Assembly (NCBI GenBank): GCA_021789225.1
Contig: JAJYJQ010000004.1
Coordinates: 1-44,160, forward strand
Source: a bacterium
GTDB taxonomy: Bacteria > Patescibacteriota > Minisyncoccia > Phycocordibacterales > Phycocordibacteraceae
Length of the DNA stretch: 44,160 nt
Direction: 5' to 3'
The position numbers and the translations under genes were made by a program. Within the stretch, counting starts at the first letter, position 1, and each line of letters begins with the position of its first letter. Below the pieces are notes generated by a model that ran no database searches, was not told the origin of the DNA, and worked only from the letters and a program-made list of their open reading frames with translations. Of the stretch, positions 2,074 to 28,700 are shown in pieces.

Positions 2074-2235
2074 GAGCCCGTTAAAAAACCCACCCTGCCT
2101 GCACCGCCGATTTTCGGGCTGCGGCGCACTCGTTTCGTCCTCTATGTGCCACAAGCACATATCGGACTCCAACTCGACGCCTCGCCTCGAAAATCGGCGG
2201 CTCGGCTGGGGTACCGCGGGTTGTTTAACGGGCTC
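2074..2235. mobile_element. 162-bp MITE-like palindromic element (family A)
   Basis: 18-bp terminal inverted repeats GAGCCCGTTAAA(A/C)AACCC (17/18 match), TTA on both flanks, nested inner inverted repeats CCGCCGATTTTCG/CGAAAATCGGCGG and TATGTGC/GCACATA. Confidence 0.75.
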
Positions 2236-2248
2236 TTAGATAGAGCCG

Positions 2249-2653
2249 CTAGGCGGCCTGTTGCCGATAGTGCTCCCGAAGGATATTTGCTTCCTTGATC
2301 TCCATCGACACGAGGCCTTTGACAAAGAAGCCAATACCCATGTCCCAGTATGCTCTGGAGAGCGGAGCGATCCACGTAAGGATGAACTCCGATTTCTGGT
2401 GATGCTGAATCAACCGCTCGAGGGCAGGCATGGCCCGACTGGACTCACCGCTCTCAATCGACGATTTGATTTCGCCCCACCAAAAAATCTTCGGCCTCAG
2501 CTGAGCAAGCCTCAATGAGGCCCACGTTTTCCTGAAACCAAAACCTCTTTGCTGCATCTCCTCATACTTGCTCGCTTTGTTCACGAGCTCTTGGAGCATA
2601 TACCCCACGCTCCAAAGAACATGCTGCCGGATCTTTTCGATATCTTCGGCCAT
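2249..2653 (-). CDS. Hypothetical protein (134 aa)
   Basis: ATG with GGAGG SD; no recognisable motif. Confidence 0.6.
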   Translation of the reverse strand: MAEDIEKIRQHVLWSVGYMLQELVNKASKYEEMQQRGFGFRKTWASLRLAQLRPKIFWWGEIKSSIESGESSRAMPALERLIQHHQKSEFILTWIAPLSRAYWDMGIGFFVKGLVSMEIKEANILREHYRQQAA

Positions 2654-2860
2654 ATTTCCCTCCGTTTTGGTTTTGAAGCAACGTGATTACTGGGCCACCC
2701 GGTTCGCCACAACAGAAAATGGCCGATGTGAGCCGCTTTCTGCTGTGGCGAACACCCTTCTCAAGGTGCTGTATTCTGGCTTAAAGCGTCTCAGATATTT
2801 GCCAAATTGTCAAGAGGAAGACGCGGAGCGGGTTTCGCGCGTGTTATCATCACAGCAACC

Positions 2861-5245
2861 ATGGAAAACACCGACGCCGTCTTGCAGCCGCTCTCGTTTG
2901 CGCAGCAGCTCGCGACCTACCGACGCATGGCGCTTGAAATCACCTACCTTATCGCGCGCAACGTCTTCATTCTCGTCAACATCATCATCTTCTCGGTCGT
3001 CGGCTTGCTCATCTATTTCGGCGACATGCGCGAGGGTCTCTCGCTCGCCGTGATCATCTCCATCAACATGGTGCTCGGCATCATCCAAGATGTGAACGCG
3101 TGGATCGTGCTCGAGCGCTTGCAAGTCCTCACCGCCATGCGCGTCACGCGCGTGCGCGCCGACGGCACGCGCGAAATCGTCTCACCGGAGGCGCTCGCCA
3201 AAGGCGACCGCATCGCACTCTCGCTCGGCGATACGGTGCCCTGCGACAGCACGCTCGCGGAGTCGCGCATGCTCGAGGTGAGCGAGTCAGTCATCACCGG
3301 CGAGTCTGCGTCCTTCCCCCGTGCGGTCGGCGAGCCGCTCCTGGCTGGCAGCGTCATCACGGCCGGCCACGGCATCGCCACCGCAGACACCACCTTCCGC
3401 GAAAGCCGCATCGCCAAGATGACCGCGCGCATCAAGCGCTACACCGTGAACGAAAGCCCTATCCAGCGCACGATCACCACCGTCGTCACCTACACGGGCT
3501 ATCTGCTCATCGCCGCCATCCTTTTCATCATCGCGCATGGTTCGCTCACGGGCGCACCGTGGGTGGACACGGTCAAGACCATCGGCGCGCTCTCGGCGGT
3601 GCTCGTGCCACAAGGGCTCGTGGTGGCAGCGACGCTCCTTTTCGCGTTCGGCGGCATCCACTTCTACCGCCGCCACGTGCTCCTGCGCGAAGCTAATGCC
3701 ACTGAAAAGCTCGCGCGCATCAAAAACCTCTGCGTGGACAAGACCGGCACGCTCACCGAAAACGCACTCACGGTCGAGACACTCATCGTGCCGGAAGGGG
3801 TAGAGCGCGCGCATGCCGAAACTCTCACTCGAGCCTACGTCGCCTCAAGCGATACCTCGGAACTCATGCGCTCCCTCGACGCATTCCTCGGCAAGAACGC
3901 AAACGAGCTTGAGATTCTCGGGGAGCTCCCCTTCTCGTCTTGGCGCCAGTATGGGGGCGCGCTGCTAGGCGACGCTGGTGCACCGGTCGCCGTGCTCGCC
4001 GGCACGCCCGAGGTCTTTACGCCGCACATGAGCGAGATACATCGCGCGTGGCTCATGGAAATCATCACGAAAGAAGCCGGTGCAGGCAAGAGGGTCTTCT
4101 GCCTCGTGCGCGACGAAGCTGCGAGTGCACTGCCGCAGACGCTTGAGGACACCGATGCGCGCCTTACGCCGCTCGCGGTCTTCGTGCTCACCAACCAGCT
4201 GCGAGAAGGCACGCGCGCGACTATCGATTTCTTCCAGGAGCGCGGGGTGCGTATCCGTGTGCTCTCGGGCGACAACACCGAAACCATCCAGGCCGTCACG
4301 CGCGCAGCGGGGATCAACCAACCGGACAAACTCATCACCGGCGCAGAAATGAGCGGCTGGACCCAAGCCGACTATGACGAACGCGCGAAAGACTACACCA
4401 TCTTCGCGCGTATCGTGCCCGAGCAGAAGGAGCACATCATCGACGCCCTAAAGAAAGACGGCTTCACCGCGATGGTCGGCGATGGCGCCAATGACGCGCT
4501 CGCCATCAAGAAAGCCGACGTGGGCGTGGCGATGTTCGATGGCACGCCGGCCACTCGGCAGATCGCCGCGGTCGTCCTCATGAGGAATAGCTTCGCCGAG
4601 CTCCCCGACGGCGTGCGTCTCGCCGACAGTATCATCGAAAATCTCTACCTCTTCGGCGCCGTGTTCATGAACCAGACCGCACTCGGCTTCTTCCTTTACG
4701 TCTTCCTCACTGCGCTCGCTCACCCCTTCCCCTTCTCGCCGCTCAATATCGCCTTCACCAGCTACTTCGCGATCGGCATCCCCAACATGCTCATCGGGTA
4801 CTGGGCGATACGTCCGGCAGGTGAGGTCGGCAAGGCAGGGGCGGAGTCTTTCGTGCGCAAAGTGTTCCCGTATGCGCTCACCTCGGGCGCTGTGGCGGCA
4901 CTGTTCCTCACCGGCATCTTGCTCATACCGACGAACGCTCTGGGTGCCGCGTCCGCAGCGACGCTCAGTGTGCTCGCGTTCGCGGTCTTGGGGTACCTGT
5001 TCTTCGTGATGGCGCCGCTGGCCTACAGCACGGCAAAGCGCCCGACGCGCGGCTGGGAGCTCCTAGGCGTGGGCGTCGGCGAGGTGGCGCTCGCTGCAGT
5101 CGTGCTCGCCATTCCATTCGCACGCACATTCTTTGACCTCACCCTCGTACCGCTCTACACCGTTATCTGGCTCGTGCCGGTCTTCTTCGGCTATGCCCTT
5201 ATCCAATATCTGCTCGCGCGTGGCTTCGCGCGCTATACGCGCTAA
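2861..5245 (+). CDS. P-type ATPase, CtpE-like cation transporter with PQGL in TM4
   Basis: TGES, DKTGTLT, LSGDN, GDGAND motifs and many TM helices; start placed at ATG 2861 after TGtTATCAT. Confidence 0.9.
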   Translation: MENTDAVLQPLSFAQQLATYRRMALEITYLIARNVFILVNIIIFSVVGLLIYFGDMREGLSLAVIISINMVLGIIQDVNAWIVLERLQVLTAMRVTRVRADGTREIVSPEALAKGDRIALSLGDTVPCDSTLAESRMLEVSESVITGESASFPRAVGEPLLAGSVITAGHGIATADTTFRESRIAKMTARIKRYTVNESPIQRTITTVVTYTGYLLIAAILFIIAHGSLTGAPWVDTVKTIGALSAVLVPQGLVVAATLLFAFGGIHFYRRHVLLREANATEKLARIKNLCVDKTGTLTENALTVETLIVPEGVERAHAETLTRAYVASSDTSELMRSLDAFLGKNANELEILGELPFSSWRQYGGALLGDAGAPVAVLAGTPEVFTPHMSEIHRAWLMEIITKEAGAGKRVFCLVRDEAASALPQTLEDTDARLTPLAVFVLTNQLREGTRATIDFFQERGVRIRVLSGDNTETIQAVTRAAGINQPDKLITGAEMSGWTQADYDERAKDYTIFARIVPEQKEHIIDALKKDGFTAMVGDGANDALAIKKADVGVAMFDGTPATRQIAAVVLMRNSFAELPDGVRLADSIIENLYLFGAVFMNQTALGFFLYVFLTALAHPFPFSPLNIAFTSYFAIGIPNMLIGYWAIRPAGEVGKAGAESFVRKVFPYALTSGAVAALFLTGILLIPTNALGAASAATLSVLAFAVLGYLFFVMAPLAYSTAKRPTRGWELLGVGVGEVALAAVVLAIPFARTFFDLTLVPLYTVIWLVPVFFGYALIQYLLARGFARYTR

Positions 5246-5256
5246 TATAGCCGCAT

Positions 5257-5982: not shown

Positions 5983-5984
5983 GA

Positions 5985-6590: not shown

Positions 6591-6725
6591 AGCTTCACGC
6601 TATCCTCCCGTGCGCATGTTTCTCATGAATACGCTTGCACATCACGCGCGGTATGGCACCATGCCTCTAGGCCTGAACCTTACGGATGAAACACTAAAGC
6701 GGCTGCAAGCCAGAAGGAGGGAAAG

Positions 6726-7310: not shown

Positions 7311-7325
7311 AGCCGATCGCCCCCG

Positions 7326-7352
7326 AAAGGCCCGCCTCCTGGCGGGCCTTTT
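7326..7352 (+). terminator. Intrinsic terminator
   Basis: AAAGGCCCGCC-tcct-GGCGGGCCTTTT. Confidence 0.7.
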
Positions 7353-8008: not shown

Positions 8009-8011
8009 TTT

Positions 8012-9732: not shown

Positions 9733-9776
9733 AAAGCTCTCCTGCATGAACACGCGTGTTCATGCAGGAGAGCTTT
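9733..9776. repeat. Perfect 44-bp palindrome (likely terminator)
   Basis: AAAGCTCTCCTGCATGAACACG|CGTGTTCATGCAGGAGAGCTTT with no spacer. Confidence 0.85.
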
Positions 9777-15293: not shown

Positions 15294-18200
15294 CTGCATA
15301 GTCTTCGACCTCGACAGCACGCTTGCCAAAAGCAAGCAGCCGATCGAGCCTGCGATGGCGGCAGCGCTCACCCGACTCCTCGCACGCATCAAGATCGCCG
15401 TCATTTCGGGCGGGAAGCTTGAGCAGCTTACGAAGCAAGTCGCTGACCGGCTGCCTCCGCACGCCGCGCGCGGAAATCTTTTCCTGCTCCCCACCTCCGG
15501 TGCCGCGCTCTACGCATATCGCACCGGCACCTGGACGCGCATATACCAAGAGGCGCTCTCACCCGACGAAGCAGCGAGCATACGTGCCGCGCTTCTTTCC
15601 GCAAACGAAGAGACCCACACGGTCGATTTCGGCACACCCGCACACGGCGAGCGCATCGAGTTCCGCGGCTCGCAGGTTTCATTCTCTGCGCTCGGGCAAG
15701 AGGCACCGCTTGCAGAAAAGCTTGCATGGGACCCGACGCGCGCGAAGCGCGAAGCGCTTCGCGCGGCACTCGAAGCGCGCCTGCCCGGATTCGAGGTGCG
15801 CATCGGCGGCACCACGACCATCGACATCACCAAGAAAGGTATCGACAAGGCGTATGGCGTCCGCCGGCTCTCCGAGCACCTGCACGTGCCCATCGACCGC
15901 ATGGAATATGTGGGCGACCAGCTTTACGAGGGAGGCAACGATGCGGTCGTCACGGCGACCGGCATCCCTACGCACGCTGTCACCGACCCCACGGACACGC
16001 TTCAGTACCTCACGCCTCTCCTCGCGCGCGCACCAGTAGCGCCGTCGCAGGGCCAGACCGGCCTCACGACAGCCGAGGCGCGACTCATCCGCGAGAAGGT
16101 CGGCGCGAACGTGCTCGAAGAAGCGCGTCCGGGCGTGTTCGGGAAATTCGTCTCGTGGACACTCACGCCGATTTCGCTGATGCTCGTGGCCGCGGCAGCG
16201 CTTTCGTTTGCTGCCGGCAAGATTCCCGATGGCTGGTTGACTCTTTTCCTCTTCGCAGCGAATTTCGGCATCCGCCTCTGGCACGAAGGCAAAGCCGATC
16301 ACGCCATCGCGAAGCTCCAGGAGAACCTCGCCGTCTCCTGCCGCGTGGAGCGCGATGGAGATTGGCAGAAGCTCCCTGCGACCGAACTCGTCCCGGGCGA
16401 CCTCGTCATGCTGTCGGTCGGTGCCATCGTGCCGGCGGACGCGACCGTACTCACCCAGACCAATCTCTCACTCAATGAGTCGATGCTTACCGGGGAGTCG
16501 CTTCCGCGCGAGCGCAGTGTCGGCGAGACGCTCTACTCCGGCTCATTCGTCGCGACCGGCAACGCGCTCGCCCTCATAACTGCCACCGGTACGCGCACCT
16601 ACTTCGGCAAGACGCTCGCTTCCGTCGAGCACGCCAAGAAACGCAGCGCGCTCGAAACGGACATCCTCTCGATCTCGCGCTTCCTTTCCATCTTCTCGCT
16701 GGTCGCCATCGCTATCCTCTCTGTCGTTCTGTTGCAGAATGCGAGCACCAAACTCATCGAGATCGCGACCCTCGACCTTTCGCTCCTCATCGCCGGCATC
16801 CCGGTCACGCTCCCGACAGTCATGAGCCTCATCATCAGCGTCGGCGTCCTCGAACTCGCCAAGCAGCGAGCCGCTGTGCGTCGCCTCTCCTCGCTCGAAG
16901 ACCTCGCCAATGTCGACCTCCTCCTTACCGATAAGACCGGTACGCTCACGGAAAACCGCATCACGGTCGATCGCGTGCTCGTGCTCGAGGGACAAGACGA
17001 ACGAGACGTCCTCGAGCTCGCCGTTTCTGCCACCGACCCCGCCGAAGGAAACGCGCTTGAGGACGCCGTCATCACGAGCGCACGTGCCGCGCTCGCCGCT
17101 CGCTTGCCACAGTCCTCCTTCACGCCAGGCGATTCGGAGCGCAAGCGGAGCACAGCCATCGTGACGCGCGCGGGCGTGCCATGGGTCGTCACGCTCGGGG
17201 CCCCGAGCACCGTGCGCGCGCTGTGCGATTTCCGCTCCGTCGACCTGGCGAAACGCTTTGACGAAGCGGTAGCGGAAGCAGCGGCGCGCGGCGACCGCGC
17301 GCTCGCGGTCGCCGCGCGCGAGGGCGCGCACGAAGCAGGCCTCAGGCCGATCGGTCTTCTTTTCCTCGCAGACACGCTCCGTGCCGACGCGAAGGAAACT
17401 ATCGCCGCCATGCGCGACCAAGGCATCACCGTCAAGATGCTCACCGGGGACGATGCCGCGATCGCTCGCCAAGTCTCGCATACGCTCGGGCTCGAAGGCG
17501 ACATCGCATCACGCACCGTCTTCGACTCATCACAAGCCCTCGACGCAGCATTCGAACAGGCTGCCGGATTCGCCAACGTACTCCCGGAAGACAAATACCT
17601 TGCCGTCGAACAAGCGAAAAAATCGCATGTCGTCGCCGTGACAGGCGATGGCGTGAACGACGTCCCGCCCGTCAAAGCGGCCGATGTCGGCATCGCCGTG
17701 AAGAACGCGGTGGACGCGCTGCGCTCGACCGCCGATATCGTCCTCCTCACGAACGGCATCGCGGTCGTGCAAGACGCCATCATCGAGGCGCGGAAAGTCT
17801 TCTCGCGCGTCTATCACTACTCGGTCTACCGTATTTCCGAGAGCTCGCGCCTCATCCTCACGATCGGCATCATCGGCGTCGTGGCGGGTGACTATCCGCT
17901 CACGCCCATACAGATCATCCTCCTCGCGCTCTTGAACGACATCCCCATCGTCTCACTCGCCTTTGATCGCGTCCACGCGCCACGTGTACCCGCCACCATC
18001 GACGTGAAGCGCCGCTTCCTCCTGGGCACGGTCTACGGCTTCACCGGCGTCTTAAACAGCGTGCTCATGCTCTGGCTCGCGCTCTCCGTCCTTCACCTGC
18101 CGTGGCCACAGATCCAGACGCTCTTCTTCTTGAAGCTCGTCGTCTCCGGCCACCTGCTCATCTATATCGCACACACCGACCACCGCTGGTTCCGCTTCCT

Positions 18201-18435
18201 CCCGAGCTGGCAGGTCATCACCGCTGTCACCGCGACACAGCTCCTGGCGACCGCCTGGGCGCTCTCCGGCCTCTTTACTGCCGCCATCCCGTTCTGGGTC
18301 GCGGCGTTCGTGTGGGTATGGGCCTTCTTCTGGATGCAGACTGCCGAGCTCGGCAAGATGCTCGTTGCCCGCGCCGCCAAGCCGAAACAAGCCTCCATGG
18401 AGCTCGCAGTTGCCGCGCTCGCGCGCGAGGCGTAG
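15280..18435 (+). CDS. Fusion of HAD-IIB phosphomannomutase-like domain and P3A-type H+-ATPase
   Basis: N-terminal FDLDSTL, ISGG, IEFRG, IGGTTTIDIT.KGIDK, GD..YEGGND; C-terminal GLT..EA, TGES, IPV.LP, DKTGTLT, MLTGD, GDGVND, YRI (TM5), LLND (TM6); single frame; upstream ATGs at 15241 and 15256 are possible. Confidence 0.85.
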   Translation: MSLPDCIVFDLDSTLAKSKQPIEPAMAAALTRLLARIKIAVISGGKLEQLTKQVADRLPPHAARGNLFLLPTSGAALYAYRTGTWTRIYQEALSPDEAASIRAALLSANEETHTVDFGTPAHGERIEFRGSQVSFSALGQEAPLAEKLAWDPTRAKREALRAALEARLPGFEVRIGGTTTIDITKKGIDKAYGVRRLSEHLHVPIDRMEYVGDQLYEGGNDAVVTATGIPTHAVTDPTDTLQYLTPLLARAPVAPSQGQTGLTTAEARLIREKVGANVLEEARPGVFGKFVSWTLTPISLMLVAAAALSFAAGKIPDGWLTLFLFAANFGIRLWHEGKADHAIAKLQENLAVSCRVERDGDWQKLPATELVPGDLVMLSVGAIVPADATVLTQTNLSLNESMLTGESLPRERSVGETLYSGSFVATGNALALITATGTRTYFGKTLASVEHAKKRSALETDILSISRFLSIFSLVAIAILSVVLLQNASTKLIEIATLDLSLLIAGIPVTLPTVMSLIISVGVLELAKQRAAVRRLSSLEDLANVDLLLTDKTGTLTENRITVDRVLVLEGQDERDVLELAVSATDPAEGNALEDAVITSARAALAARLPQSSFTPGDSERKRSTAIVTRAGVPWVVTLGAPSTVRALCDFRSVDLAKRFDEAVAEAAARGDRALAVAAREGAHEAGLRPIGLLFLADTLRADAKETIAAMRDQGITVKMLTGDDAAIARQVSHTLGLEGDIASRTVFDSSQALDAAFEQAAGFANVLPEDKYLAVEQAKKSHVVAVTGDGVNDVPPVKAADVGIAVKNAVDALRSTADIVLLTNGIAVVQDAIIEARKVFSRVYHYSVYRISESSRLILTIGIIGVVAGDYPLTPIQIILLALLNDIPIVSLAFDRVHAPRVPATIDVKRRFLLGTVYGFTGVLNSVLMLWLALSVLHLPWPQIQTLFFLKLVVSGHLLIYIAHTDHRWFRFLPSWQVITAVTATQLLATAWALSGLFTAAIPFWVAAFVWVWAFFWMQTAELGKMLVARAAKPKQASMELAVAALAREA

Positions 18436-18444
18436 TTATACACA
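18436..18444 (+). promoter_or_regulatory. Single DnaA-box-like 9-mer
   Basis: TTATACACA matches TTATNCACA; similar single boxes at 24675-24683 and 36831-36839. Confidence 0.3.
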
Positions 18445-18595
18445 CCCGCAACATTGCATCCTTGTGCTGTTTATGTCATACTCACGATAACTCGCAGTGT
18501 CTCTTGAGCTTTGCGGCCCTCGTGCCCCAGAAGCGTTCGGTACCCGGCGAGGGTTATCAAGTTCACAGCCATTTTCAAGCAATGCTTTCACAATG

Positions 18596-18698
18596 GTGCG
18601 CTTCTGAATTTCGAGCGAGAAACGAGTCGGAACGCGAAGTGTATCCGAGATACATTGAGCGTGAGACGAGGTTTCGCAGCCGAAATTCAGAAGCGCAC
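18596..18698. repeat. 103-bp palindromic element (family A) upstream of the RRM gene
   Basis: Perfect 18-bp inverted repeat GTGCGCTTCTGAATTTCG/CGAAATTCAGAAGCGCAC enclosing the TGTATC-cga-GATACA hairpin. Confidence 0.8.
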
Positions 18699-18736
18699 GT
18701 GGAATGATTGATTGAGAAGGGCGTTACTACGCATCC

Positions 18737-19072
18737 ATGCAAGAAAACAAGAAGAAGCTCTTTGTCGGCGGTATCCCGTGGGCCTCGACAGAAGAGGACG
18801 TCCGCAAGGCGTTCGAGGAGGCTGGCACCGTCGTTTCGGTGAGCCTTCCGATCGACCGCATGTACAACCGCCCGCGCGGTTTCGGTTTCGTCGAAATGGC
18901 GACCGAGGCAGAAGCGCAGGCAGCAGTCGAGCGCTGGGACGGAAAGGATTTCGGCGGTCGCACCCTTAAGGTGGACTTCGCTCGCCCGGAGAGCGAGCGC
19001 CCGCCTCGCGAGAATCGCGGTGGTGGTCGCGGCGGCTTCGGCGGCGATCGTGGCGGCTACGGCAGCTACTAA
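18737..19072 (+). CDS. RRM RNA-binding protein with Gly-rich tail
   Basis: RNP2 LFVGGI, RNP1 RGFGFVEM, RGG-rich C-terminus. Confidence 0.95.
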   Translation: MQENKKKLFVGGIPWASTEEDVRKAFEEAGTVVSVSLPIDRMYNRPRGFGFVEMATEAEAQAAVERWDGKDFGGRTLKVDFARPESERPPRENRGGGRGGFGGDRGGYGSY

Positions 19073-19075
19073 TCT

Positions 19076-19121
19076 CCCCAAAAGAAAAAGACCCTCACCC
19101 GAGGGTCTTTTTCTTTTGGGG
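19076..19121. terminator. Bidirectional terminator between convergent genes
   Basis: CCCCAAAAGAAAAAGACCCTC-accc-GAGGGTCTTTTTCTTTTGGGG, 21-bp stem. Confidence 0.85.
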
Positions 19122-19125
19122 ATGG

Positions 19126-19584
19126 TTACGCAAGGTGCGGATGGTGAAGCGGCTGCTCCCTATCGTGTTCCGGCGTCTGCGCCTGTGCACCACCGAGGCG
19201 CTGCTCAAGACGCACGAGGAGCGAGCCGATTGACGCAAGCGCCAGGATGAGGATGACGAACCACGCATAGGATGTCGCGAAGTACGCGAGCACGATGACG
19301 AGCGCCGCCCAGAGAGTCGCTGTGCGTCGGCTCTGAGCCATCATGCCGAGCGTTGAGCGGAGCGAATACGGCTCGGCGTTCTGAGTCCATGCCCGCGCAC
19401 GAGCAGACACGCTGTCGCGCATGCACAGCCGCGCTAGCTGATGTGTCGCGAAGGCCATGAGCACGAAGTCACCGAGCGGCACCCACGTCGCGAGCGCGTG
19501 TGCATCAGCGAGAAGCGTGATGCCCGCGAGCAAGGCGGACACGTACAGAAGGCCGAAGAAAAATCCCCAAAAATGAAAACGCAT
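19126..19584 (-). CDS. DUF1360-like membrane protein
   Basis: D..L..FAT..L.RL...D.V....R pattern then TM helices; start at ATG 19584 after TACACT. Confidence 0.55.
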   Translation of the reverse strand: MRFHFWGFFFGLLYVSALLAGITLLADAHALATWVPLGDFVLMAFATHQLARLCMRDSVSARARAWTQNAEPYSLRSTLGMMAQSRRTATLWAALVIVLAYFATSYAWFVILILALASIGSLLVRLEQRLGGAQAQTPEHDREQPLHHPHLA

Positions 19585-19629
19585 ATAGCGGTAGTGTACG
19601 GCGCCGCCGGGAAATGGCAAGATACGCGC

Positions 19630-20385
19630 ATGAATCTTCCCGAAGGAGTGTCCGCACAAGATGCAGCCTGGCTTTTGCGCGACAAATACGAGGGCGTGGA
19701 GAGCGAGGTGTATGAACAAGACCTGCAGCGGCTCGCCGCAGGCGAGCCGCTGCCCTACGTCATCGGCTGGGTTCCCTTCCTCGGCCTCGCCATCTCGCTC
19801 GCTTCGCACCCCCTCATCCCGCGTGCCGAAACCGAGTGGTGGGTGGAGCGACTAATCGAGGAGCTTCGCGCGCGCTATGGCGACAAGCCCTTCACCTTTC
19901 TCGACCTATGCGCCGGCTCAGGCGCCATCGGCTGTGCCATCCTCGCCGCACTCCCGAACGCCCGCGTCTCCTTCGGCGAACTCGACCCTGCGCACGCCCC
20001 CACCATCCGCGCCAATGTGGGACGTGCAACGTCCCACATTAAGCGGGCAGACATTCGCATTGGCGATCTGTTTGAGCCTTTTGCCGGCGAGCGATTCGAC
20101 TGCATCGCGGCGAACCCTCCCTACATTCCTGAAGCTCGCATGCTCCCGCGCGAAGTCGCTGCATATGAGCCGCGCGAAGCGCTGTACGCCGGCGCCGATG
20201 GCCTCGCCGTCATGCGCCGCATCGCCGAAGGACTACCCTCACATCTCGCGCGGGCCGGCTGCGCATGGATAGAGGTAGACGCGATCCACGCATCCGCAGC
20301 GCAGGAGCTTTTCGCGCGGGCCGGTTTCGCAGCCGACATACGCACCGACCAGTATGGACGGCCGCGCCTCATCGTGGCAAACTAG
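19630..20385 (+). CDS. prmC: Release factor glutamine methyltransferase (HemK/PrmC)
   Basis: GEPLPYVIG, LIPRAETE, LDLCAGSGAIG, NPPY, EP..AL..G.DGL, DQYG..R. Confidence 0.92.
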   Translation: MNLPEGVSAQDAAWLLRDKYEGVESEVYEQDLQRLAAGEPLPYVIGWVPFLGLAISLASHPLIPRAETEWWVERLIEELRARYGDKPFTFLDLCAGSGAIGCAILAALPNARVSFGELDPAHAPTIRANVGRATSHIKRADIRIGDLFEPFAGERFDCIAANPPYIPEARMLPREVAAYEPREALYAGADGLAVMRRIAEGLPSHLARAGCAWIEVDAIHASAAQELFARAGFAADIRTDQYGRPRLIVAN

Positions 20386-20389
20386 CGAC

Positions 20390-20647
20390 ATGCAAGGAAC
20401 GCCGATCGGAATCACCCCCTCGCTCGCCCCCATCGCCGGCTCCCTCTCGGGCATCCACCTCGGCAGCATCGTGAGCTGGTTTTTCTTCGGCCTCGTGTTT
20501 CTCATCTGGGCACTTTCTACCCTTGCGGCCATCTATCACTGGCTGCGGTATAGCTATCGCTCATTCATGACCCTTCCCATGCTCATTTTGCACGCCTTCG
20601 TATCGTACTCGCTGCTGATGTACACGTGGAGCAGCATGGCAGGATAA
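20390..20647 (+). CDS. Small membrane protein (85 aa)
   Basis: Tightly packed between prmC and the next gene; two hydrophobic helices, YHW.RY motif. Confidence 0.65.
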   Translation: MQGTPIGITPSLAPIAGSLSGIHLGSIVSWFFFGLVFLIWALSTLAAIYHWLRYSYRSFMTLPMLILHAFVSYSLLMYTWSSMAG

Positions 20648-20651
20648 CCCT

Positions 20652-21209
20652 ATGGAAGAATTTTCACTTGAGTCAGGAGAACGTGTGGTGCGAATCGTGC
20701 GCCGGCACTGGATTGCGCTTCTTAGCTCTCTCATCCCGGTCGCCATACTCGCGATCGCGCCGCTCCTCGTCATGCCACTCCTCCAGGCCGCATCTTCCCT
20801 GAGCCCGGCGCTCGCGCCGCTCGCTACGAACAGCGCGATGCTCTCGTTCTTTTCGTGGTCGCACTTCACGCTCGGCCTGTGGTGGCTTTTTCTCTGGATC
20901 GGCGCGTTCAACGCGATCACGCGCTACTTCCTCAACGTCTGGATTCTCACGACCAAGCGCATTGTCGAGATACGCCAGCCGCGCTATTTCAACCGCAAAG
21001 TATCCAGCTTCTTCCTGAACCGCATCCAGGATGTTACTTCGAACGTGAGCGGCATATTCGGCACCGTATTCGGTTTCGGTTCCATCCACGTCGAGACCGC
21101 CGGCGAAACCGAGGCGTTCGAGATGCATAACATTTACGACCCGACCGGATTCCGCGACATCATCCTGCACGAGATGACCGTGACGACTGCGCCGCGCGAA
21201 GCCCAGTAG
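20652..21209 (+). CDS. Membrane protein with bacterial PH domain
   Basis: RRHW, two TM helices, ILTTKRIV...F.R......RIQDV...G....FGFG.I.VETAG. Confidence 0.8.
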   Translation: MEEFSLESGERVVRIVRRHWIALLSSLIPVAILAIAPLLVMPLLQAASSLSPALAPLATNSAMLSFFSWSHFTLGLWWLFLWIGAFNAITRYFLNVWILTTKRIVEIRQPRYFNRKVSSFFLNRIQDVTSNVSGIFGTVFGFGSIHVETAGETEAFEMHNIYDPTGFRDIILHEMTVTTAPREAQ

Positions 21210-21215
21210 GCGCAG

Positions 21216-21249
21216 AAAAGCGCGGCGGCCTTCGGCCGCCGCGCTTTTT
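21216..21249 (+). terminator. GC-rich hairpin terminator directly upstream of the hisS -10 box
   Basis: AAAAGCGCGGCGGCC-ttc-GGCCGCCGCGCTTTTT. Confidence 0.7.
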
Positions 21250-21265
21250 CTGTTATAGTTGCCTT

Positions 21266-22534
21266 ATGAACGATTCAGAAAAGCTTTCGACCGAGCCCTA
21301 TAAGGGCACGCGCGATTTCTACCCTGCCGACTGGGCAAAGCTCCAGGCGATGTTCGACCGCATCCGGCAGACGCTCGCCTCCTGGGGCTACGAAGAATAC
21401 AACGCCTCGCCGCTCGAACGCGCCGAGCTCTACGAAAGCAAGACCTCGGAAGAGATTGTCAACGAACAGACCTACACCTTTACCGACCGTGGCGACCGCC
21501 GCGTCACCCTGCGCCCTGAGATGACGCCGACCCTAGCACGCATGGTCGCTGCCAAGCGACGCGAGCTCCCCTTCCCGGTGCGCTGGTTTTCCATCGGCAA
21601 CCGCTTCCGCTACGAGCGGCCGCAGCGTGGGCGCCTGCGCGAGTTTTATCAGACCGATGTCGACCTCCTCGGCGCCGCAGGCCCAGAAGCAGATATCGAG
21701 ATCATCACGCTCGTCGCGACGATACTGAGCGCATTCGACGCAAAAGAAAGCGACTTCACCATCCGCGTCAATTCGCGCACACTCCTCAACGCCGCCTGCG
21801 CTGCCGCCGGACTTTCCGGCGAGCAAGTACGCGCCTACACACACCTCCTCGACCGCAAAGCAAAGATGCCCGCTGAGGAATTTGCCGCGGCAGTGCGCGA
21901 AATCACCGAGCGCGACCCGCTCGCGCTCATCGAGCAAGGCGGCGATCCGGGAGTCGAGCACGAGAAGCGCGCTCTCTTCGACACCATCGAGGCGCTCAAC
22001 ACGCGCGGCGTGACAAACGCCCGCTTCGACCCCACCATCACGCGCGGATTCGATTACTACACTGGCATCGTCTTCGAAGTGTACGACACGAACCCGGCAA
22101 ATACGCGCGCGCTTTTTGGCGGTGGTCGCTACGACCAGCTCGTCGCACTCTTTGGCGGCGACCCCATCCCTGCGGTGGGCTTTGGCATGGGCGATGTCAC
22201 ACTTGCTGACTTCCTCGAGACACATCAGCTCACCCTCCCCACCAATACAAAACCGCAGCTCTACATCGGCACGCCTGCTGCAAGCGACATTCCCGGCGCA
22301 CAAGCGTTTGCCCAGTGGCTCCGCGCCCAGGGCGCGCGCGTGTTTGTAAACCTCACCGAGAAATCGCTTGGCGACCAGGTGAAAGATGCCGTGCGCCGTG
22401 GCATCCCGCTTTTCATCGCCTATGGCCAAAACGAAGTGCGCCAGGACCTCGTGCGCCTGAAAGTGCTCGCCACCGGCGAGGAAATCGGCATGGCCGCGAG
22501 CGATGTGCCGCCATACATTCGCGCAGAGAGGTAG
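21266..22534 (+). CDS. hisS: Histidine--tRNA ligase
   Basis: KGTRDFYP, LRPEMTP, FRYERPQRGRLREFYQ, RGFDYYTG, GGGRYD, AVGFGMG. Confidence 0.97.
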   Translation: MNDSEKLSTEPYKGTRDFYPADWAKLQAMFDRIRQTLASWGYEEYNASPLERAELYESKTSEEIVNEQTYTFTDRGDRRVTLRPEMTPTLARMVAAKRRELPFPVRWFSIGNRFRYERPQRGRLREFYQTDVDLLGAAGPEADIEIITLVATILSAFDAKESDFTIRVNSRTLLNAACAAAGLSGEQVRAYTHLLDRKAKMPAEEFAAAVREITERDPLALIEQGGDPGVEHEKRALFDTIEALNTRGVTNARFDPTITRGFDYYTGIVFEVYDTNPANTRALFGGGRYDQLVALFGGDPIPAVGFGMGDVTLADFLETHQLTLPTNTKPQLYIGTPAASDIPGAQAFAQWLRAQGARVFVNLTEKSLGDQVKDAVRRGIPLFIAYGQNEVRQDLVRLKVLATGEEIGMAASDVPPYIRAER

Positions 22535-22535
22535 T

Positions 22536-23117
22536 ATGCGGGCCATCACCTTCGATATCGAGACGAAAAACACGTCCGCGGTGCGCGGCCGTGTGGACCC
22601 CGCCGAGATGGAGCTCACCGTCGTCGCCATCCACGACTCCGAGACCGACGAGTATTCTTCCTATTTTAAAGAAGAGCTCCCGAGGCTCTGGCCCATCATC
22701 GAGCGGGCTGATGTGCTCATCGGCTTCAACTCCGACACCTTCGACATCCCCATCCTGAACCGCTACTACCCTGGCGACCTCTCGAAGATCCGCTCGCTCG
22801 ATCTCCTGGTCGAAGTGCAGAAAGCGCTCGGGCGACGCATCCGCCTCCAGCTCCTCGCCGAAGCGACACTCGGCCGCGGCAAGGCCGGCAGTGGCCTCAA
22901 GGCCGTCGACTGGTGGGCTGAGGGCAAGTACGAAGAGGTGCGCAAGTACTGCATCGAAGACGTGCGCATCACGCGCGACCTCTACGACTACGCGCTCAAA
23001 AACGGCAAGCTCAAATACAAAGACCTCAAAGACATCCGCGACATCAAGCTCGACACGAGTAACTGGAATGTAAAAATCGGCGAGGCGCCGGCCATGACGC
23101 ACACGCTGGGGCTGTAA
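22536..23117 (+). CDS. RNase H-like (DEDD/YprB-type) nuclease domain protein
   Basis: FDIET, GFN...FDIP.L, DLL, L..LA..TLG, YC..DV..T..LY. Confidence 0.8.
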   Translation: MRAITFDIETKNTSAVRGRVDPAEMELTVVAIHDSETDEYSSYFKEELPRLWPIIERADVLIGFNSDTFDIPILNRYYPGDLSKIRSLDLLVEVQKALGRRIRLQLLAEATLGRGKAGSGLKAVDWWAEGKYEEVRKYCIEDVRITRDLYDYALKNGKLKYKDLKDIRDIKLDTSNWNVKIGEAPAMTHTLGL

Positions 23118-23125
23118 CTCCGAGA

Positions 23126-23210
23126 GCCGTCGCCGGCATGTCGAGAAAAAGTGAGTAAGACTCGGCCTAGCGGCCCGGAGCGCTCACTTTTTTCGACATG
23201 CCGGTGCGGC
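23126..23210 (+). repeat. Palindromic element (family B) downstream of the nuclease gene
   Basis: CCGGCATGTCGA...AAAAAGTGAG / CTCACTTTTT...TCGACATGCCGG; reverse-complement homolog at 36964-37036. Confidence 0.8.
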
Positions 23211-23252
23211 GACTAAACAGACCGGACGCGGTCCACGTGCTATCATCCTCCT

Positions 23253-23936
23253 ATGAAGACGAGCACGGTCATCCCCATCGCGATCCTGATCGGCGGCGCC
23301 ATCGTCGCGGCTGCCGTCTACTTTACAACCTCAGCGCGCCTCTCACCCGGAAAATACGGCAAAGATAATCCCGCCGCCATGCGCCCAGTCAGCTCGGAAG
23401 ACCACATCCTCGGCAACCCTGGCGCGCCAGTGAAGGTGGTCGAGTATTCCGACTTCGATTGCGAGTATTGCAGCGAGTTCCAGCAGACGATGCATCGCGC
23501 GCTCGACTCGTACGGCCCCGCTGGAAACGTGGCGTGGATCTTCCGCGAGTTCCCGCTCACCGAGCTGCACCCCGACGCGTTTAAGACAGCCGTCGCTGCC
23601 GAGTGCGTCGCGAAGACCGCCGGCGAGGATGCGTTCTGGAAATTCACCGACCTGCTCTACGCGCACCAGCCGGTCGCGCCCTCCTCATTCGGCGAATACG
23701 CGCGCCAGGCAGGCGCCGACCCGAGCGCTGTCGCCTCCTGCATCGTCGACGGCTCCATGGACGCACGCGTCACTGCCGACCGAGAGAACGCGCTCGAGAT
23801 GAACGCACCCGGCACGCCCTACGCCATCATCGTCGCCGACGGCGCCGCGCCAGTCGTCATAAGCAGCTCCTACCCCTACAACTACATCAAACAGCAAATC
23901 GACACCGCCCTCTCCATCGCCGGCAAGCGCCCTTGA
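23253..23936 (+). CDS. DsbA/thioredoxin-fold protein with N-terminal membrane anchor
   Basis: DH..GNP.A.V.VVEYSDFDCEYC, FPL..LHP, GTP. Confidence 0.88.
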   Translation: MKTSTVIPIAILIGGAIVAAAVYFTTSARLSPGKYGKDNPAAMRPVSSEDHILGNPGAPVKVVEYSDFDCEYCSEFQQTMHRALDSYGPAGNVAWIFREFPLTELHPDAFKTAVAAECVAKTAGEDAFWKFTDLLYAHQPVAPSSFGEYARQAGADPSAVASCIVDGSMDARVTADRENALEMNAPGTPYAIIVADGAAPVVISSSYPYNYIKQQIDTALSIAGKRP

Positions 23937-24053
23937 CAAATTATGTGCATCATGTAAATATAAGAACAGCTAAAAAGTTCTTTGACTACCTACTTGTTGG
24001 TGGCCAAGGATTTCCCTTGTAATCAAGCCTGAAAGGGCGAAAAGGAGGATTCC
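23933..24053 (+). promoter_or_regulatory. Promoter and leader, homologous to 25370..25552
   Basis: TTGACAAAT...TCATGTA...AAGTTCTTTGA-CTACCTAC...AATCAA-hairpin-AAGGAGG. Confidence 0.6.
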
Positions 24054-24464
24054 ATGAAGAAACTGTACGTCGAGGTAATCGGATCCCGATACGCTTTCGG
24101 CCTGACTGAGATGCAGAAAAGCATTTCTCAACACATGGAGGAGAAAGGATATCGATTGGTTGCTACTCTTGAGGAAACGGACCTTGGCCTGTTCGTGCTA
24201 CCCATGCGGTCCCAATCGCATTCTTTTGAATGGCTTCGGCACATTGAAGGCGAGAAGTGCTTGATCGGAATCTACGGCAGCCCCCTCGAGATTGAAGACA
24301 CGTTTGGATACGATTCATACAAAAAAGGTAGGCGGGCAGCAGCCTGTTTTGGCGGTCCCCAGGTGTTGGTAGAGGACATTATAATCTACACGGGCGACTG
24401 GTTTGAGAGAGCTGTCGCAAAATGTGCTCACCAAATCTTCAAGAACTTGAATCCACACGTGTAG
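24054..24464 (+). CDS. Hypothetical protein (136 aa, lower GC)
   Basis: AAGGAGG SD, own promoter, downstream hairpin and T-run. Confidence 0.7.
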   Translation: MKKLYVEVIGSRYAFGLTEMQKSISQHMEEKGYRLVATLEETDLGLFVLPMRSQSHSFEWLRHIEGEKCLIGIYGSPLEIEDTFGYDSYKKGRRAAACFGGPQVLVEDIIIYTGDWFERAVAKCAHQIFKNLNPHV

Positions 24465-24540
24465 GCAGTCCGGTTTAACCCAATCCCCCGCGTCTGGATG
24501 GCGTGGGGTTGTTTGTTTTTGCGCGTCGGCATCTTCGGCT

Positions 24541-24587
24541 TCGCCGAGCGCTGCGCCTTGCTCCGCCTCCCCCACCGGCACAAGCAC
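24541..24587 (-). pseudogene. Relic copy of the 3' end of the UvrD-nuclease gene
   Basis: 24559-24587 matches 25862-25890 at 28/29 nt (41/47 over the extended region); translates VLVPVGEAEQGAAL vs VLVPVGEAEQEAAL. Confidence 0.75.
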
Positions 24588-24779
24588 CTTCGGAAATATG
24601 TCTGATCATCTCGGCGACATGAAATCCGCGTGAAAAGGTTTTTGTACGAAAATGGCGTTTATGCTACAGTGTATTTATCCACAGTCACGGAGAATGTGTT
24701 CTTTGTCATCGTTATAATAGAGGGAGGTTGCGAATTCTTGTGGGGCTGAAAAGCAGAAATTCGGCTCTACTGCAGGTCG

Positions 24780-25274
24780 CTAGTAGACTGGCTTGCCAGC
24801 ATCCAATGCGACACGATGGGAGGTGGTGCCGTCTCCCCAGCTCCACAAGAGCACGCAACCTTTCCCACTCGCGAGATACCGTTCGCGCTTCTCAAAGACA
24901 GTGACGATTTCCACCTCCTTCTCGGAAACGATTTCAACGATGCAAATATACTCCTGCTCCTTGAGTGGACCGACCAAACAAAATCCGCCGCGCTTGCTTC
25001 CCGGCTTGTTGCGATACACCTGCGCCGGTCTTTTTACGAGGGCATGAAGCGTATCCAAAATGAGCTGGTACTCCGCAGCAGTTCTCTGCTCGTATACGTG
25101 CTTGAGTGCACGCGTGGTGATATACGCCGACCCAGCTCCAGATAGACCCAACACTTTCGAGACAGCGCGCGTGAGCGTACATACCTTGTCCCGACCGGTA
25201 CCGACAATTTCTCCTTTGTAGGTCCCCTGAATATACGCTTCGTGCATTTCGTGAAGCACTCTTCGTTGCGGCAT
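24780..25274 (-). CDS. Hypothetical protein, possible BECR/RelE-fold ribonuclease-like
   Basis: Start at ATG 25274 seven nt after TATAAT; LKHVYEQR helix, P..VY.N, and final strand EIVTVF resemble PBECR proteins (pattern only). Confidence 0.6.
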   Translation of the reverse strand: MPQRRVLHEMHEAYIQGTYKGEIVGTGRDKVCTLTRAVSKVLGLSGAGSAYITTRALKHVYEQRTAAEYQLILDTLHALVKRPAQVYRNKPGSKRGGFCLVGPLKEQEYICIVEIVSEKEVEIVTVFEKRERYLASGKGCVLLWSWGDGTTSHRVALDAGKPVY

Positions 25275-25317
25275 GATTCTCATTATACCGCTATGCTCAT
25301 GGCGGGTTTCACCTTAA

Positions 25318-25352
25318 AAGTCGCGTGCGGCGCTTCGCGCCGCACGCGACTT
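25318..25352. repeat. GC-rich 16-bp hairpin
   Basis: AAGTCGCGTGCGGCGC-ttc-GCGCCGCACGCGACTT. Confidence 0.75.
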
Positions 25353-25369
25353 CCTACCCCGCCTAATGC

Positions 25370-25552
25370 TTGACAAATATCAGACCTCATGTATCATATT
25401 GGGCAGGATAGAAGTTCTTTGAGACTACCTACCTGCGAACTGTGGTCATAGCCAAAAGCGGCTTATTTCTAGGCCTTTCTTGGCTATGACCACGGGGAGT
25501 CGTGGCTTCATCTAGGAAATCAAAAGCCCGTTACGGGTGAAGGAGGTGTCTC
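25370..25552 (+). promoter_or_regulatory. Promoter and structured leader, homologous to 23933..24053
   Basis: TTGACA-16 nt-TATCAT, AAGTTCTTTGAgaCTACCTAC, 14-bp stem 25442-25493, AATCAA-hairpin-AAGGAGG. Confidence 0.6.
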
Positions 25553-25678
25553 ATGGACGGGTCTTCGCTTGCTATTGTGTCAGGAGTGCTCGGTGGCATC
25601 TTCGGGTCTGCGTGCCTGAGACTACTCCGGGCGATTGGCCGTCGCCCCAACAAGCAAACACCCAAGAGCACGAAGTAG
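25553..25678 (+). CDS. 41-aa single-TM small protein (not in the ORF track)
   Basis: AAGGAGGT SD; MDGSSLAIVSGVLGGIFGSACLRLLRAIGRRPNKQTPKSTK; followed by terminator hairpins. Confidence 0.6.
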   Translation: MDGSSLAIVSGVLGGIFGSACLRLLRAIGRRPNKQTPKSTK

Positions 25679-25707
25679 CGGTTTTTTCCTTCGAGGAAGG
25701 AAAAACG

Positions 25708-25734
25708 AGGTCTCGCATCGCTGCGAGACCTTTT
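25708..25734. terminator. Terminator between the small gene and the UvrD gene
   Basis: AGGTCTCGCA-tcgc-TGCGAGACCTTTT. Confidence 0.65.
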
Positions 25735-25749
25735 CATTTATGCAGGAGA

Positions 25750-28700
25750 CTATTGCTCCAGCAACGCGAGGAGGGCGTCGTAGGCAGAGGGGGCGCCGCG
25801 GCGCCAGGTGAGGGAGCGCAGCTCGCGGACGACCGTGTCTACATCGGCGAGCGCGGCCTCCTGCTCCGCCTCCCCCACCGGCACGAGCACTTGTTTTATA
25901 CCTGCATCCGAAATGCCCAGCAGCTCGGCACCGGCGACGGGCTCTTTGTTTGCCGCAAGCATCGCGGCGTAGAGCGCGAGCTGGCGTGCGTAGCCTTCGT
26001 TTTTTGCCGAGACGCTGCTGCCTGTTTTGAAATCTGCCACCACGAGCGCACCGCCGTTTTTAAACACCACGTCGATCTTGCCGCCAAACGTCACCGGCGC
26101 GCCCTCCACCACGCGCGTCAGCGAGAATGCTTTTTCAATGTGCTCAGGCGCGCCCAACGCTGAGAGCTCTGGCAGCGCTGCGGCAAACGCTGCGCGCGCA
26201 TCGCGCTTGAGTTTCTCGAAGGTCGCGTCGCGCGGGAGGAGTGAGCGGTCAAAGGAGCGCGCGAGCGTAGCGAGCGCGTCTTCTTCGCTTGCGCCCGAGA
26301 GCGCTGCGGCGAGTGCGGCGTGCAGCGCGTTGCCGTAGACCAAGGGCGCCGTGGGCGGCTCCTGGATCCTGAGCACGCGCCGCGCGAAAAATGTCGCTGG
26401 CGACTCCAAGTATTCGTTTACGGCCGAAGGCGAAAGCCCTTCCGTTTCGAGATAGCGCTCGATGAGCGCGCGAACTTTCTCCGGCGCGGAAACGGTCGTA
26501 TGCAAAAGCGGCAGCGCCTCGCTCTCGACCGGCGTTTCGGGCAAGCCAGCTGGCAGCAGGCTCGTCGGCAGCCGGTCGCGCCCCTCGGCGCTCGCGCGAG
26601 CATAGGAAAGATACGCATGATCCTTAGCACGCGTGAGCGCCACATAGAAAAGCCGGCGCGCATCATCAAGCGACTGTTTGTTTTCAAACGGCGAAGGCAG
26701 CAGCGCGGCGCGACCGCCCTTCTCCCACGCGTTTTCCGTGCAGTCAGGAATGAGCACGTACCGAAACTCCATGCCTTTGGCTTTGTGCGCCGTGATGACC
26801 GTCACAAACCCTTCCCGCTCTGTGACAGACACTTTCACCGGCGAGAGGCCGTGTTCACGCGCTCGCGAGAGCGCCGCAAACGCTTCGGCAAATGTCGCCC
26901 CCTCGGTGAGACGCGCCGCAGATTCCAAATGCTCCATGAGCTTGCGCACGAGTGCGATATCGTCCACGTGCTCGGCATGCGAGAGGAAGTAGTCGCGTGC
27001 GCCACTCTCGGCAAAGACATAGGAGAAAGTCGCGATGGGTGTTTCGCTACGCGCTTTCTGCACGCACGTCGTGATGACGCGCGCGGTCTCGGGGTATGCG
27101 CGTGCGAGTGCACTCGTGAGGTCGCGGTCGCTCGTGGTGCGCAAAAATACCAAGAGCTCCGCAATGTTGGACACCGGATGTCCAACATGCCACCAGGGGG
27201 CGAGGAGAGCTTCGCGGAGGCTGCCGAGCGCGGTCGGGTCAGCCACGTACTGCATGAGCGCCATAAGAGCACGCATGAGTGGCCGGCCTGTGAGCGAGAG
27301 GTCGCCCGCACGCAAGACAGGCAGACCGCGCGCAATGAGCACGTCGGCAAAAAGATCGGCTGTGTCGTTCGTGCGCGCGATGACCGCGATCTCGTGCGGC
27401 GCGGCACCCTCCGCGATGAGCTGCTCGATGAGCACCGCTGCTTTCGCGCGCTCGTCGAGCGGGTCGAGTGCCTCGATACGCGAGACTCGCTCGCGCACGC
27501 CGTCTTCCCCATTTCCGCGATGTGCCGCAAGCGGCGCGTGGTCGCCCGTCAAGGGGCCTCTCCCAAAAATAACCCCCAAATCGCCCTCACCCAAAGCGTG
27601 GCGGCTGCGAGGCGCTGTTTCCGGCTGCGAGTCCGAACGGCTCGCACTCGACGTATCTCGATACGCCTCATGCTGCGCCGCGGGCTCTCGCTCGGAAACA
27701 GCGCCTCTCGCTTCGCCATTATTTTTGGGAGAGACCCCCGCCACCACTTCATGTGCTGCGTCGAGAATGTGCTGGTACGAACGGAACGAGGACGTGAGTG
27801 CAATCACGGTCGCGCGCGGGAAAAGCTCCGTGAACGCTTTGAATGCCCCGAGGTCAGCGCCTTGGAAGCGGTAGATCGCCTGCTTTTCATCACCCACCAC
27901 AAAAAGATTCGGATGGTCGTCATATGCGAAAAGTTCAAGCAGACGGTGCTGGAGCGCGTTTGCGTCTTGATGCTCATCCGCGAGGATGTACTGATAGCGC
28001 TCCTGCAGGTCGCTCCTCAGCCCCTCATCCGCCGCGATGCGTGCGATAACACTCGCGAGCATGTCGGAAAAATCCGAGAGGTGGCGCTCATCTTTGAGTG
28101 CCTCGTAGCGCTCGAATACGCGCACTGCCTCCTCCACCTTATCGAAACGCGCGAGCTTCTCCTGCCCCGCTTTTGTGAGCTCGCCCGCGTGTTCGCCGCG
28201 CTTGTAGCGGAGTGATTCGTCAGCCCCGAGCGCTTCGGCGGCTTCTTTCCCCCACGCGCGATACGCATCTAGTGACATCGCCTCGCGTGTGAGCGTGTCG
28301 TACAGGGAGCGCAAGTCGCGCAGATAGGTGTAGGGTGCTTTGGCGGGTCGGAGCGTATCGAGCTCGGCAGTGTCTATTGCTTCGCGCAGGAGGAGCGTCT
28401 GCTCCACATCGCCCATGAGCCGCCGGTCGGCTTCAGCAGCAAACGCATCCGGATACTCCGCGCGCACGAGCTCTGCAAAGCCGTGAAAAGTGGTAATGGT
28501 CACCTTGCGCGCCGTCTCCTCGCCGATGAGCAGCGCAAGCCGCCGCCGCATCGTGCGCGCAGCCGAGTCGGTGAATGTGAGCGCGAGGACCGCGTCGGGC
28601 TTCGCCTGGGTAACGCGCAAGATGTTTGCGATGCGAAGCGTCAGGATGTGGGTCTTCCCCGTGCCCGGGCCCGCGAGCACCATCACCGGCCCCTCCACCG

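Follow-up and report, generated by a model that had tools for sequence, protein, structure and literature searches.

What are the three long palindromes that lie in a 44,160-nucleotide stretch of a Patescibacteria genome (contig JAJYJQ010000004.1; hereafter the window, meaning the whole stretch analyzed), and what preserves their common architecture? These palindromes, here termed E1, E2 and E3, represent a repeat family that we call Family A. We propose that Family A elements are probably non-autonomous transposons (MITEs, small transposable elements with inverted repeats) that combine ends of the IS5 type with a structured core. The evidence comes from a core conserved as a fold on one strand, from outer arms that in the main subfamily coincide with the ends of an insertion sequence (IS), and from copies that are present in one genome and absent from its relatives.

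A folded core common to the three elements

The original prediction described three palindromes with unlike outer stems and one architecture, and a listing of inverted repeats places all three where it had put them. E1 occupies 2072..2238 on the minus strand, as judged from its inverted repeats I7 (2069-2091/2218-2240) and I10 (2104-2126/2178-2200), its fold and a reading of the sequence. It lies between the stop of an open reading frame (ORF) at 2249-2653 (minus strand) and a terminator-like hairpin at 2029-2052, and its limits extend further than first described, reaching a flanking TA at 2072 and at 2238; on the minus strand its 5' end reads TA-AGAGCCCG, which resembles the TAGARCC ends of the main subfamily discussed below. 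E2, delimited by comparison with an empty site, is a 161-nt insertion at 18565..18725 (plus strand), longer than the palindrome originally given; it holds inverted repeat I2 (18596-18623/18671-18698), sits in the 5' leader of a gene for an RNA-binding protein and has decayed outer arms. E3, of 186 nt (27553..27738, minus strand), is bounded by inverted repeat I12 (27553-27572/27719-27738), encloses I6 (27609-27635/27681-27707) and lies inside a helicase-nuclease gene.

Each element folds as one long hairpin, and in each the better-folding strand is the one that the original prediction had named. The favored strand is more stable by 10-18 kcal/mol: -106.3 on the minus versus -94.9 on the plus strand for E1, -61.0 on the plus versus -50.5 on the minus strand for E2, and -116.7 on the minus versus -98.4 on the plus strand for E3. 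Common to all three is a core of about 97 nt, which a covariance model matches at 2104..2200 in E1 (minus strand; E 8.5e-21), 18600..18694 in E2 (plus strand; E 1.4e-18) and 27610..27706 in E3 (minus strand; E 2.5e-19). Apical hairpins closed by GA/GA loops, and arms of the form TTTC(C)GAG(G)CGAG...CGCAGCC(C/G)GAAA, can be read directly in the sequence. Descending from the tip, the core has an apical hairpin (7-8 bp) above a GA/GA loop, next a helix of 4 bp and a (G/C)GA/GA loop, next a helix of 3-5 bp and another small loop, and then a helix of 4-6 bp, an asymmetric loop (5'-AGCGAG opposite 3'-CGYAGCC) and a UUUC(C)G/CGRAAA helix; in many copies the asymmetric loop recurs as a second, outer layer.

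Conservation of the core as a single-strand fold

Covariation was counted in 30 copies aligned to the covariance model, an alignment that is biased towards that model and in which copies from relatives are kin and not independent. Standard pairs fill 94.0% of the pair cells, versus 61.7% in shuffles, and sliding the partner by 1-3 columns lowers pairing to 36-46%. Changes on both sides occur at 36 of the 37 pairs, and none of 500 shuffles reaches any of these measures; a separate RNAalifold run on the five seed copies found 23 of the 37 pairs compensated. The earlier claim that a strand-specific structure is kept in preference to sequence is thus borne out. Unpaired loop purines hardly vary. 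The apical GA/GA columns are conserved in 28, 27, 29 and 30 of the 30 copies, the lower GA columns in 27 and 27, the GA of AGCGAG in 30 and 29, and the G and A of CGYAGCC in 29 and 29. Within stems, G-U or U-G pairs (60 cells) far outnumber A-C or C-A mismatches (16 cells). A subfamily represented by the C22 and C28 copies of the source genome has two C-G pairs in place of the apical GA/GA, a replacement that fits GA pairs forming part of a continuous stack.

Under RNA parameters, 37 of 38 distinct cores are more stable on the model strand (mean difference -9.0 kcal/mol), and under DNA parameters all 38 are (mean -3.6). Since the asymmetry appears with both parameter sets, it indicates selection on one strand and accommodates RNA and single-stranded DNA (ssDNA) alike. 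What selection maintains in the core is a single-strand fold, and on a defined strand.

Two described structures were considered and rejected. Kink-turns place a 3-nt bulge and then tandem G.A/A.G pairs between a regular and an irregular helix; the anatomy here differs, with 2x2 and 3x2 GA loops and, in AGCGAG/CGYAGCC, five nucleotides on the strand expected to have two. Integron attC sites carry outer boxes RYYYAAC ... GTTRRRY around a strand-specific fold; Family A ends read TAGARCC...GGYTCTA, and R''/R' boxes in that order are not present.

Outer arms of the main subfamily match the ends of an IS5-family insertion sequence

Full elements measure about 160-195 nt and are paired from end to end as a single hairpin. 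Most copies in relatives span 170-195 nt with flanks, start with TAGARCCNGTCTCRAAAATAATGG and end in the matching inverted sequence, and other subfamilies have different arms around the common core. A scan of the 21-mer end pattern across genomes of 185,579 species returned 52 loci, 15 of which carry the core. At one source, a metagenome-assembled genome (MAG) of Ca. Adlerbacteria, the 21-mer forms the end of a multi-copy 852-bp element: 12 ends were found, 11 of them identical over 250 nt and one variant, and the four copies compared in full are all identical. This element contains two overlapping, frameshifted ORFs that match DUF4096 (PF13340, 8e-28) and DDE_Tnp_1 (PF01609, 4e-15), as well as the NCBIfam family NF033580 transpos_IS5_3 (4e-29 and 6e-33, covering positions 5-104 and 119-258); we take insertion sequences of this type to resemble the IS427 group of ISfinder.

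Elements of the main subfamily have, as the terminal 23-24 nt of either side, the two distinguishable ends of an IS of 845-874 bp, the 5' arms matching end A (...AATAATG) and the 3' arms end B (...AATACCG / ...AATAACC). The outer stems are accordingly not the free-form sequence that the original prediction had assumed, at least in this subfamily, where they are transposon ends. IS copies are flanked C-TA..TA-G, and TA stands on both sides of 13 of the 21 distinct paired-arm elements, with no longer direct repeat. A parallel scan of metagenomes gave 59 loci, of which about thirty hold elements of 143-224 nt and nine hold the Family A core; four hold a related IS (53-82% protein identity), three of these with a partner end 845-874 bp away and the fourth (L164) running off its contig. 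Viral contigs gave no match to the end pattern. The window copies agree with the IS ends only in part, with E1 keeping TA-AGAGCCCG, E2 and E3 decayed, and the E3 tips reading GGGG..CCCC instead of TA..TA.

The look for a transposase with matching ends that the original prediction proposed gave a positive result: an IS5-family DDE element with the same ends exists, though in other Patescibacteria. The interior of the elements, which is the core, is not derived from this IS and is common to subfamilies with quite different arms.

The same ends also enclose other interiors. One class of 140-171 nt has the same arms around a different, shorter interior whose apical hairpin is likewise closed by GA/GA, and this class folds at -59 versus -36 to -39 on the opposite strand. 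Two examples, on contigs labelled Desulfobacteraceae (L108) and delta proteobacterium (L117), measure 140 and 171 nt; they share the ends and the TA flanks and have a different core, with GA/GA beneath the apical hairpin and a much better fold on one strand. Two forms of 67-73 nt in relative G016 (C9:7761-7833 and C27:17279-17345; L070 and L072) consist of transposon-end arms without the inner hairpin, joined between short GCCU repeats, as a deletion derivative or an empty carrier would be. In a Bdellovibrionales MAG (OZ253553.1, a 2.9-Mb predator genome), nine places (loci including L089, L094, L102, L103, L114, L115, L121 and L133) carry a modular repeat of 65-350 nt that opens with the 21-mer and has neither a Family A core nor an adjoining transposase; the likeness may reflect chance or relation.

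Presence and absence between relatives

E3 is translated in frame as approximately residues 341-402 of its host protein, which has 1002 residues, combines a UvrD/AddA-type helicase with a PD-(D/E)XK nuclease domain and is encoded at 25750..28758 (minus strand). In the closest orthologues, those of relatives G011 (82% identical overall) and G012 (76%), a single residue stands where the host protein of E3 has residues 341-403, which makes a net difference of 62 codons. E2 is missing from G012 and, in X2 and X3, two soil runs belonging to a single study, from a contig of each; these same contigs do hold E3 (records 14 and 20; 183 differences over 2241 nt). In the X2 and X3 contigs position 18564 is joined to 18726 with TC between, and the flank differs from the window at 23 positions in 3143 nt (99.3% identical); the empty site leaves at most a 2-nt AC..AC repeat flanking the element. 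A further copy in the source genome (C34), upstream of efp, is likewise absent from G012, and no direct repeat longer than 2 nt adjoins the E2, E3 or C34 copies. For E1, the flanks gave no usable orthologous spacer in five relatives. The elements are mobile DNA, as the original prediction had supposed, given the presence and absence of E2, E3 and the C34 copy between relatives.

Two other segments of the window differ in the X2 and X3 contigs. A 135-nt spacer at 23118-23252, with an inverted repeat at 23133-23149/23188-23204, is replaced there by 32 other letters and is possibly another small hairpin insertion. A 1.4-kb segment at 23932-25368 is skipped in these contigs and forms a strain-specific islet, with two small ORFs (24054-24464, plus strand, and 24780-25283, minus strand) that have no Pfam match.

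Size and distribution of the family

The covariance model (R1), built from five copies after a pattern search, identifies six copies in the source genome (G000; 782 kb, 98.5% complete) at E values of 3e-22 to 6e-8, with the next match at 0.07. Diverged copies are missed by the model filters, as is the case for a seventh copy spotted by eye at C28:about 2780-2965. Matches occur in 12 of 61 related genomes, with one to eight in each and 25 copies in relatives; under stricter filters, a phylum-wide set of 151 genomes gave matches only in the source genome itself. Rfam has no match in the window at the gathering score, and two elements give chance-level matches only (E 1.3-9.7). A literature search, with subscription journals and supplements outside its scope, returned no description of Family A for Patescibacteria, and the portion of a MITE review available to us (PMC10969869) mentions neither Patescibacteria nor candidate phyla. 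The family is restricted in lineage, to a single order of Paceibacteria-type Patescibacteria.

Orientation relative to neighboring genes

The original prediction held that all elements face the same way relative to transcription. This is so for E1, E2 and E3, which, together with the C4 copy, are sense to their host gene or to the genes on both sides; the spacers that hold the C34, C22 and C28 copies are divergent or convergent. As a trait of the family it does not hold. In the relatives, where gene calls rest on ORFs and Pfam, 12 of the 25 copies could be classed, four as sense (L004, L008, L019 and L026) and eight as antisense (L006, L007, L012, L017, L018, L023, L027 and L032); Pfam supports both neighbors for two of the sense and four of the antisense copies. 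Each of the remaining 13 either has convergent or divergent genes around it or lacks supported neighbors. Because orientation is mixed, the fold cannot be a requirement of neighboring mRNAs, and the core is not likely to serve neighboring genes. Copies with decayed ends tend to be sense, a post hoc grouping on which we place no weight. No sigma-70-like promoter was found in the two elements scanned, and the RNA run X6 contributed two pieces of about 40 nt that map elsewhere than the elements; for 18001-28000 of the window, no RNA run is listed as containing it.

Downstream of E2 lies the gene for the RNA-binding protein, which has an RRM domain (18737..19072, plus strand). The leader 5' of this gene at 18489-18563, though non-coding, shares 82% identity with G012 across 75 nt and is a possible regulatory leader, just behind which E2 is inserted. 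Two further inverted repeats of the window do not belong to Family A: a perfect 44-nt palindrome at 9733-9776, where the ORF for a P-type ATPase starts, and a 30-nt inverted repeat at 36862-37159 whose arms are 238 nt apart and 97% complementary.

Transposases of the element-bearing genomes

Candidate partners of other types were sought in five element-rich genomes. The TA flanks suggested an IS630/Tc1-type partner; PF13358 (DDE_3) is present in none of the five. TnpB gave nothing over the cut-off in these genomes, and a reverse transcriptase (RVT_1) occurs in three of them but not in G000 or G029, and hence is not required.

Tyrosine transposases of the Y1_Tnp family are found in 40 of the 61 relatives, often in several copies, and two Y1_Tnp matches are the only transposase-like genes found in the source genome. 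One is a classic IS200-type gene of 143 aa at the end of contig C21, with a different end hairpin. The other (C28:1776-2471, 231 aa) resembles a REP-associated tyrosine transposase (RAYT; REP, repetitive extragenic palindrome), matching NF047646 at E 3.6e-9, below the cut-off. It is flanked on both sides by its own 21-nt hairpin, GTTGGACACCGGATGTCCAAC, and variants of it, and this REP-like hairpin has six further occurrences, among them one inside the helicase gene; its sites are 27160-27190 of the window, C27:3638 and 3660, and C28:1190, 1746, 2495 and 8082. The RAYT-like gene and the 21-nt hairpin constitute a separate small system that lends no specific support to an origin of Family A by transposases of the HUH type. 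Within the helicase gene, the 21-nt hairpin (27160-27190) marks a short stretch that differs in length between three orthologues. In relatives G001, G006, G023 and G036, RAYT-like Y1_Tnp genes (210-290 aa) reach 7-10 copies in genomes of 0.5-0.7 Mb, a striking load.

Origin and role of the elements

We favor the reading of Family A as MITEs with IS5-type ends around a structured core. An IS5-type DDE transposase, when present, would move copies in trans with duplication of TA, and the three copies of the window would be older ones with ends partly or fully decayed. The folded strand, whether as the ssDNA of replication or transposition or as RNA, might help the element to propagate or to be kept, for example as a site for a host or transposase-associated protein; between a constraint at the RNA level and one at the ssDNA level, we regard the odds as roughly even.

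Several observations weigh against this proposal. PF01609 is found in four of the 61 relatives, all of which lack the core, and in none of the 12 that bear it (the core-bearing G587 and G588 lay outside this search). The IS4/IS5-type elements of relatives G006, G009, G050 and G056 have no similar ends, and G585, which bears the 852-bp IS, has no core, so that IS and core were never seen in the same genome. A resident partner is lacking in many MITE families, and its absence lowers the claim of present activity, not that of origin. The flanking TA..TA is indistinguishable from a palindromic extension of the inverted repeat, and no pair of filled and empty sites with intact ends was obtained. 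Positions in the arms covary from genome to genome (CCTGTCTC, CCAGTCTC and CCCATCTC, each with its matching partner) and between copies right down to the tips, as in E3, which transposase binding explains only via descent from variant masters. The arms of one subfamily only are matched to an IS: for a second arm type, TAGGCAGTGTTCACA, a search of 401 genomes of the order gave 20 one-mismatch matches, about as many as a reversed-pattern control, and no insertion sequence. Finally, E2 is polymorphic between strains that are 99.3% identical despite its badly decayed ends, which fits poorly with end-dependent transposition; its absence may reflect hairpin-mediated precise deletion in the other strain, or movement that reads the fold or is independent of the ends.

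Among other explanations, the core could be a functional RNA—a small RNA or a cis-acting, protein-bound mRNA hairpin—captured between transposon ends, with DNA mobility as its vehicle. Invariant unpaired purines beside covarying helices, together with a wobble excess on one strand, are the usual signature of a structured RNA; the same core also recurs within arms of different types, the other classes with the same ends share the GA/GA-closed apical hairpin and one-strand fold, and all four classifiable copies in this genome are sense to genes. Yet antisense copies are twice as many as sense copies in the relatives, the two scanned elements lack a sigma-70-like promoter, the strand asymmetry is equally present with DNA parameters, the C22/C28 subfamily dispenses with the apical GA/GA, and Rfam offers no counterpart, so we consider this account unlikely. 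That the palindromes are unrelated terminators or chance inverted repeats that merely look alike can be set aside as already refuted: they do lie at gene ends, several copies abutting terminator hairpins, but model E-values of 1e-18 to 1e-22, covariation, loop sequences common to the copies and presence that varies between relatives speak against it.

Movement as a hairpin akin to a REPIN (a hairpin of paired REP sequences), by an HUH tyrosine transposase of RAYT or IS200-like type that reads the fold, with the arms secondary, would agree with the strand-specific constraint, with the lack of a target duplication above 2 nt and with the polymorphism of an E2 whose ends have decayed. Y1_Tnp genes, moreover, are multi-copy and widespread in the relatives and the only transposase-like genes found in the source genome, where some 300 nt separate the one at C28:1776-2471 from a Family A copy. 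Both Y1 genes of that genome, however, are associated with hairpins of their own, the RAYT-like gene with one that is different and dispersed; Y1_Tnp does not track the core (10 of 12 core-bearing versus 30 of 49 other genomes); neighboring copies in G045 show no orientation bias; and the arms agree in detail with a DDE insertion sequence. We judge this origin very improbable. A bolder idea, for which we hold out only a slim chance, is that the GA/GA rod is a self-standing RNA or ssDNA module, recognized by a protein, that has been picked up repeatedly between different IS5-type ends and can persist or even move after these decay, something of which E2 gives a hint; if so, the fold and not the inverted repeats would be under selection, and the elements would be structure-defined passengers and not ordinary deletion-derived MITEs.

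Comparison with known systems

The genomes of Patescibacteria are tiny and hold very few transposases, and they nonetheless contain hairpin repeats that insert at gene ends and even in frame within genes of essential type. For annotation, Family A accounts for unusual insertions within conserved proteins and for the long palindromes of leaders and 3' regions in these genomes. The elements have no coding capacity of their own, the only long frame being that of the E3 host gene. Rickettsia palindromic elements, of about 150 bp, can lie in frame inside conserved protein genes and be read through, according to a review (PMC10969869). E3 is read through in the same manner, one verified case, and the likeness is one of behavior only: Family A occurs in other bacteria, has another sequence and has an identified IS partner.

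Correia elements (Correia repeat enclosed elements, CREE, or Neisseria miniature insertion sequences, NEMIS) are associated with TA duplication. The same review describes them as hairpin MITEs of Neisseria at gene ends that can act at the RNA level when transcribed (PMC10969869). Family A shares with them hairpin formation, placement at gene ends, inverted-repeat arms and TA flanks. There is no sequence relation, however, and Correia elements have promoters and an IHF site, unlike the two Family A elements scanned, which show no promoter-like site. To our knowledge, a GA/GA rod core is not a described feature of Correia elements. The enterobacterial repetitive intergenic consensus (ERIC), or intergenic repeat unit (IRU), is an imperfect palindrome, and the fold of its transcript has been held responsible for its conservation; a relation to Family A is unsupported, as a blastn search with the E2 core as query gave no match in 5,426 E. 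coli genomes. REP/REPIN-RAYT systems likewise comprise hairpin repeats with strand-specific features, but the hairpin flanking the RAYT-like gene is a different one from Family A, whose elements are much longer and whose arms are the ends of a DDE transposon.

IS5-derived MITEs come closest in form: Family A elements are short and gene-less, carry both IS ends and TA flanks, occur in several copies per genome, vary in presence between relatives and have no such transposase in any core-bearing genome searched for one. They differ in that the interior is a conserved strand-specific fold and not a remnant of IS deletion, and in that the arms covary. The alignment of 30 copies gives a signature of single-strand structural selection that, for its size, could hardly be cleaner, and Family A is tied to a concrete IS5-family partner with the same ends; together, partner and folded core make testable a general question that has received little study, namely why bacterial MITEs keep a folded core and whether the constraint acts on DNA or RNA.

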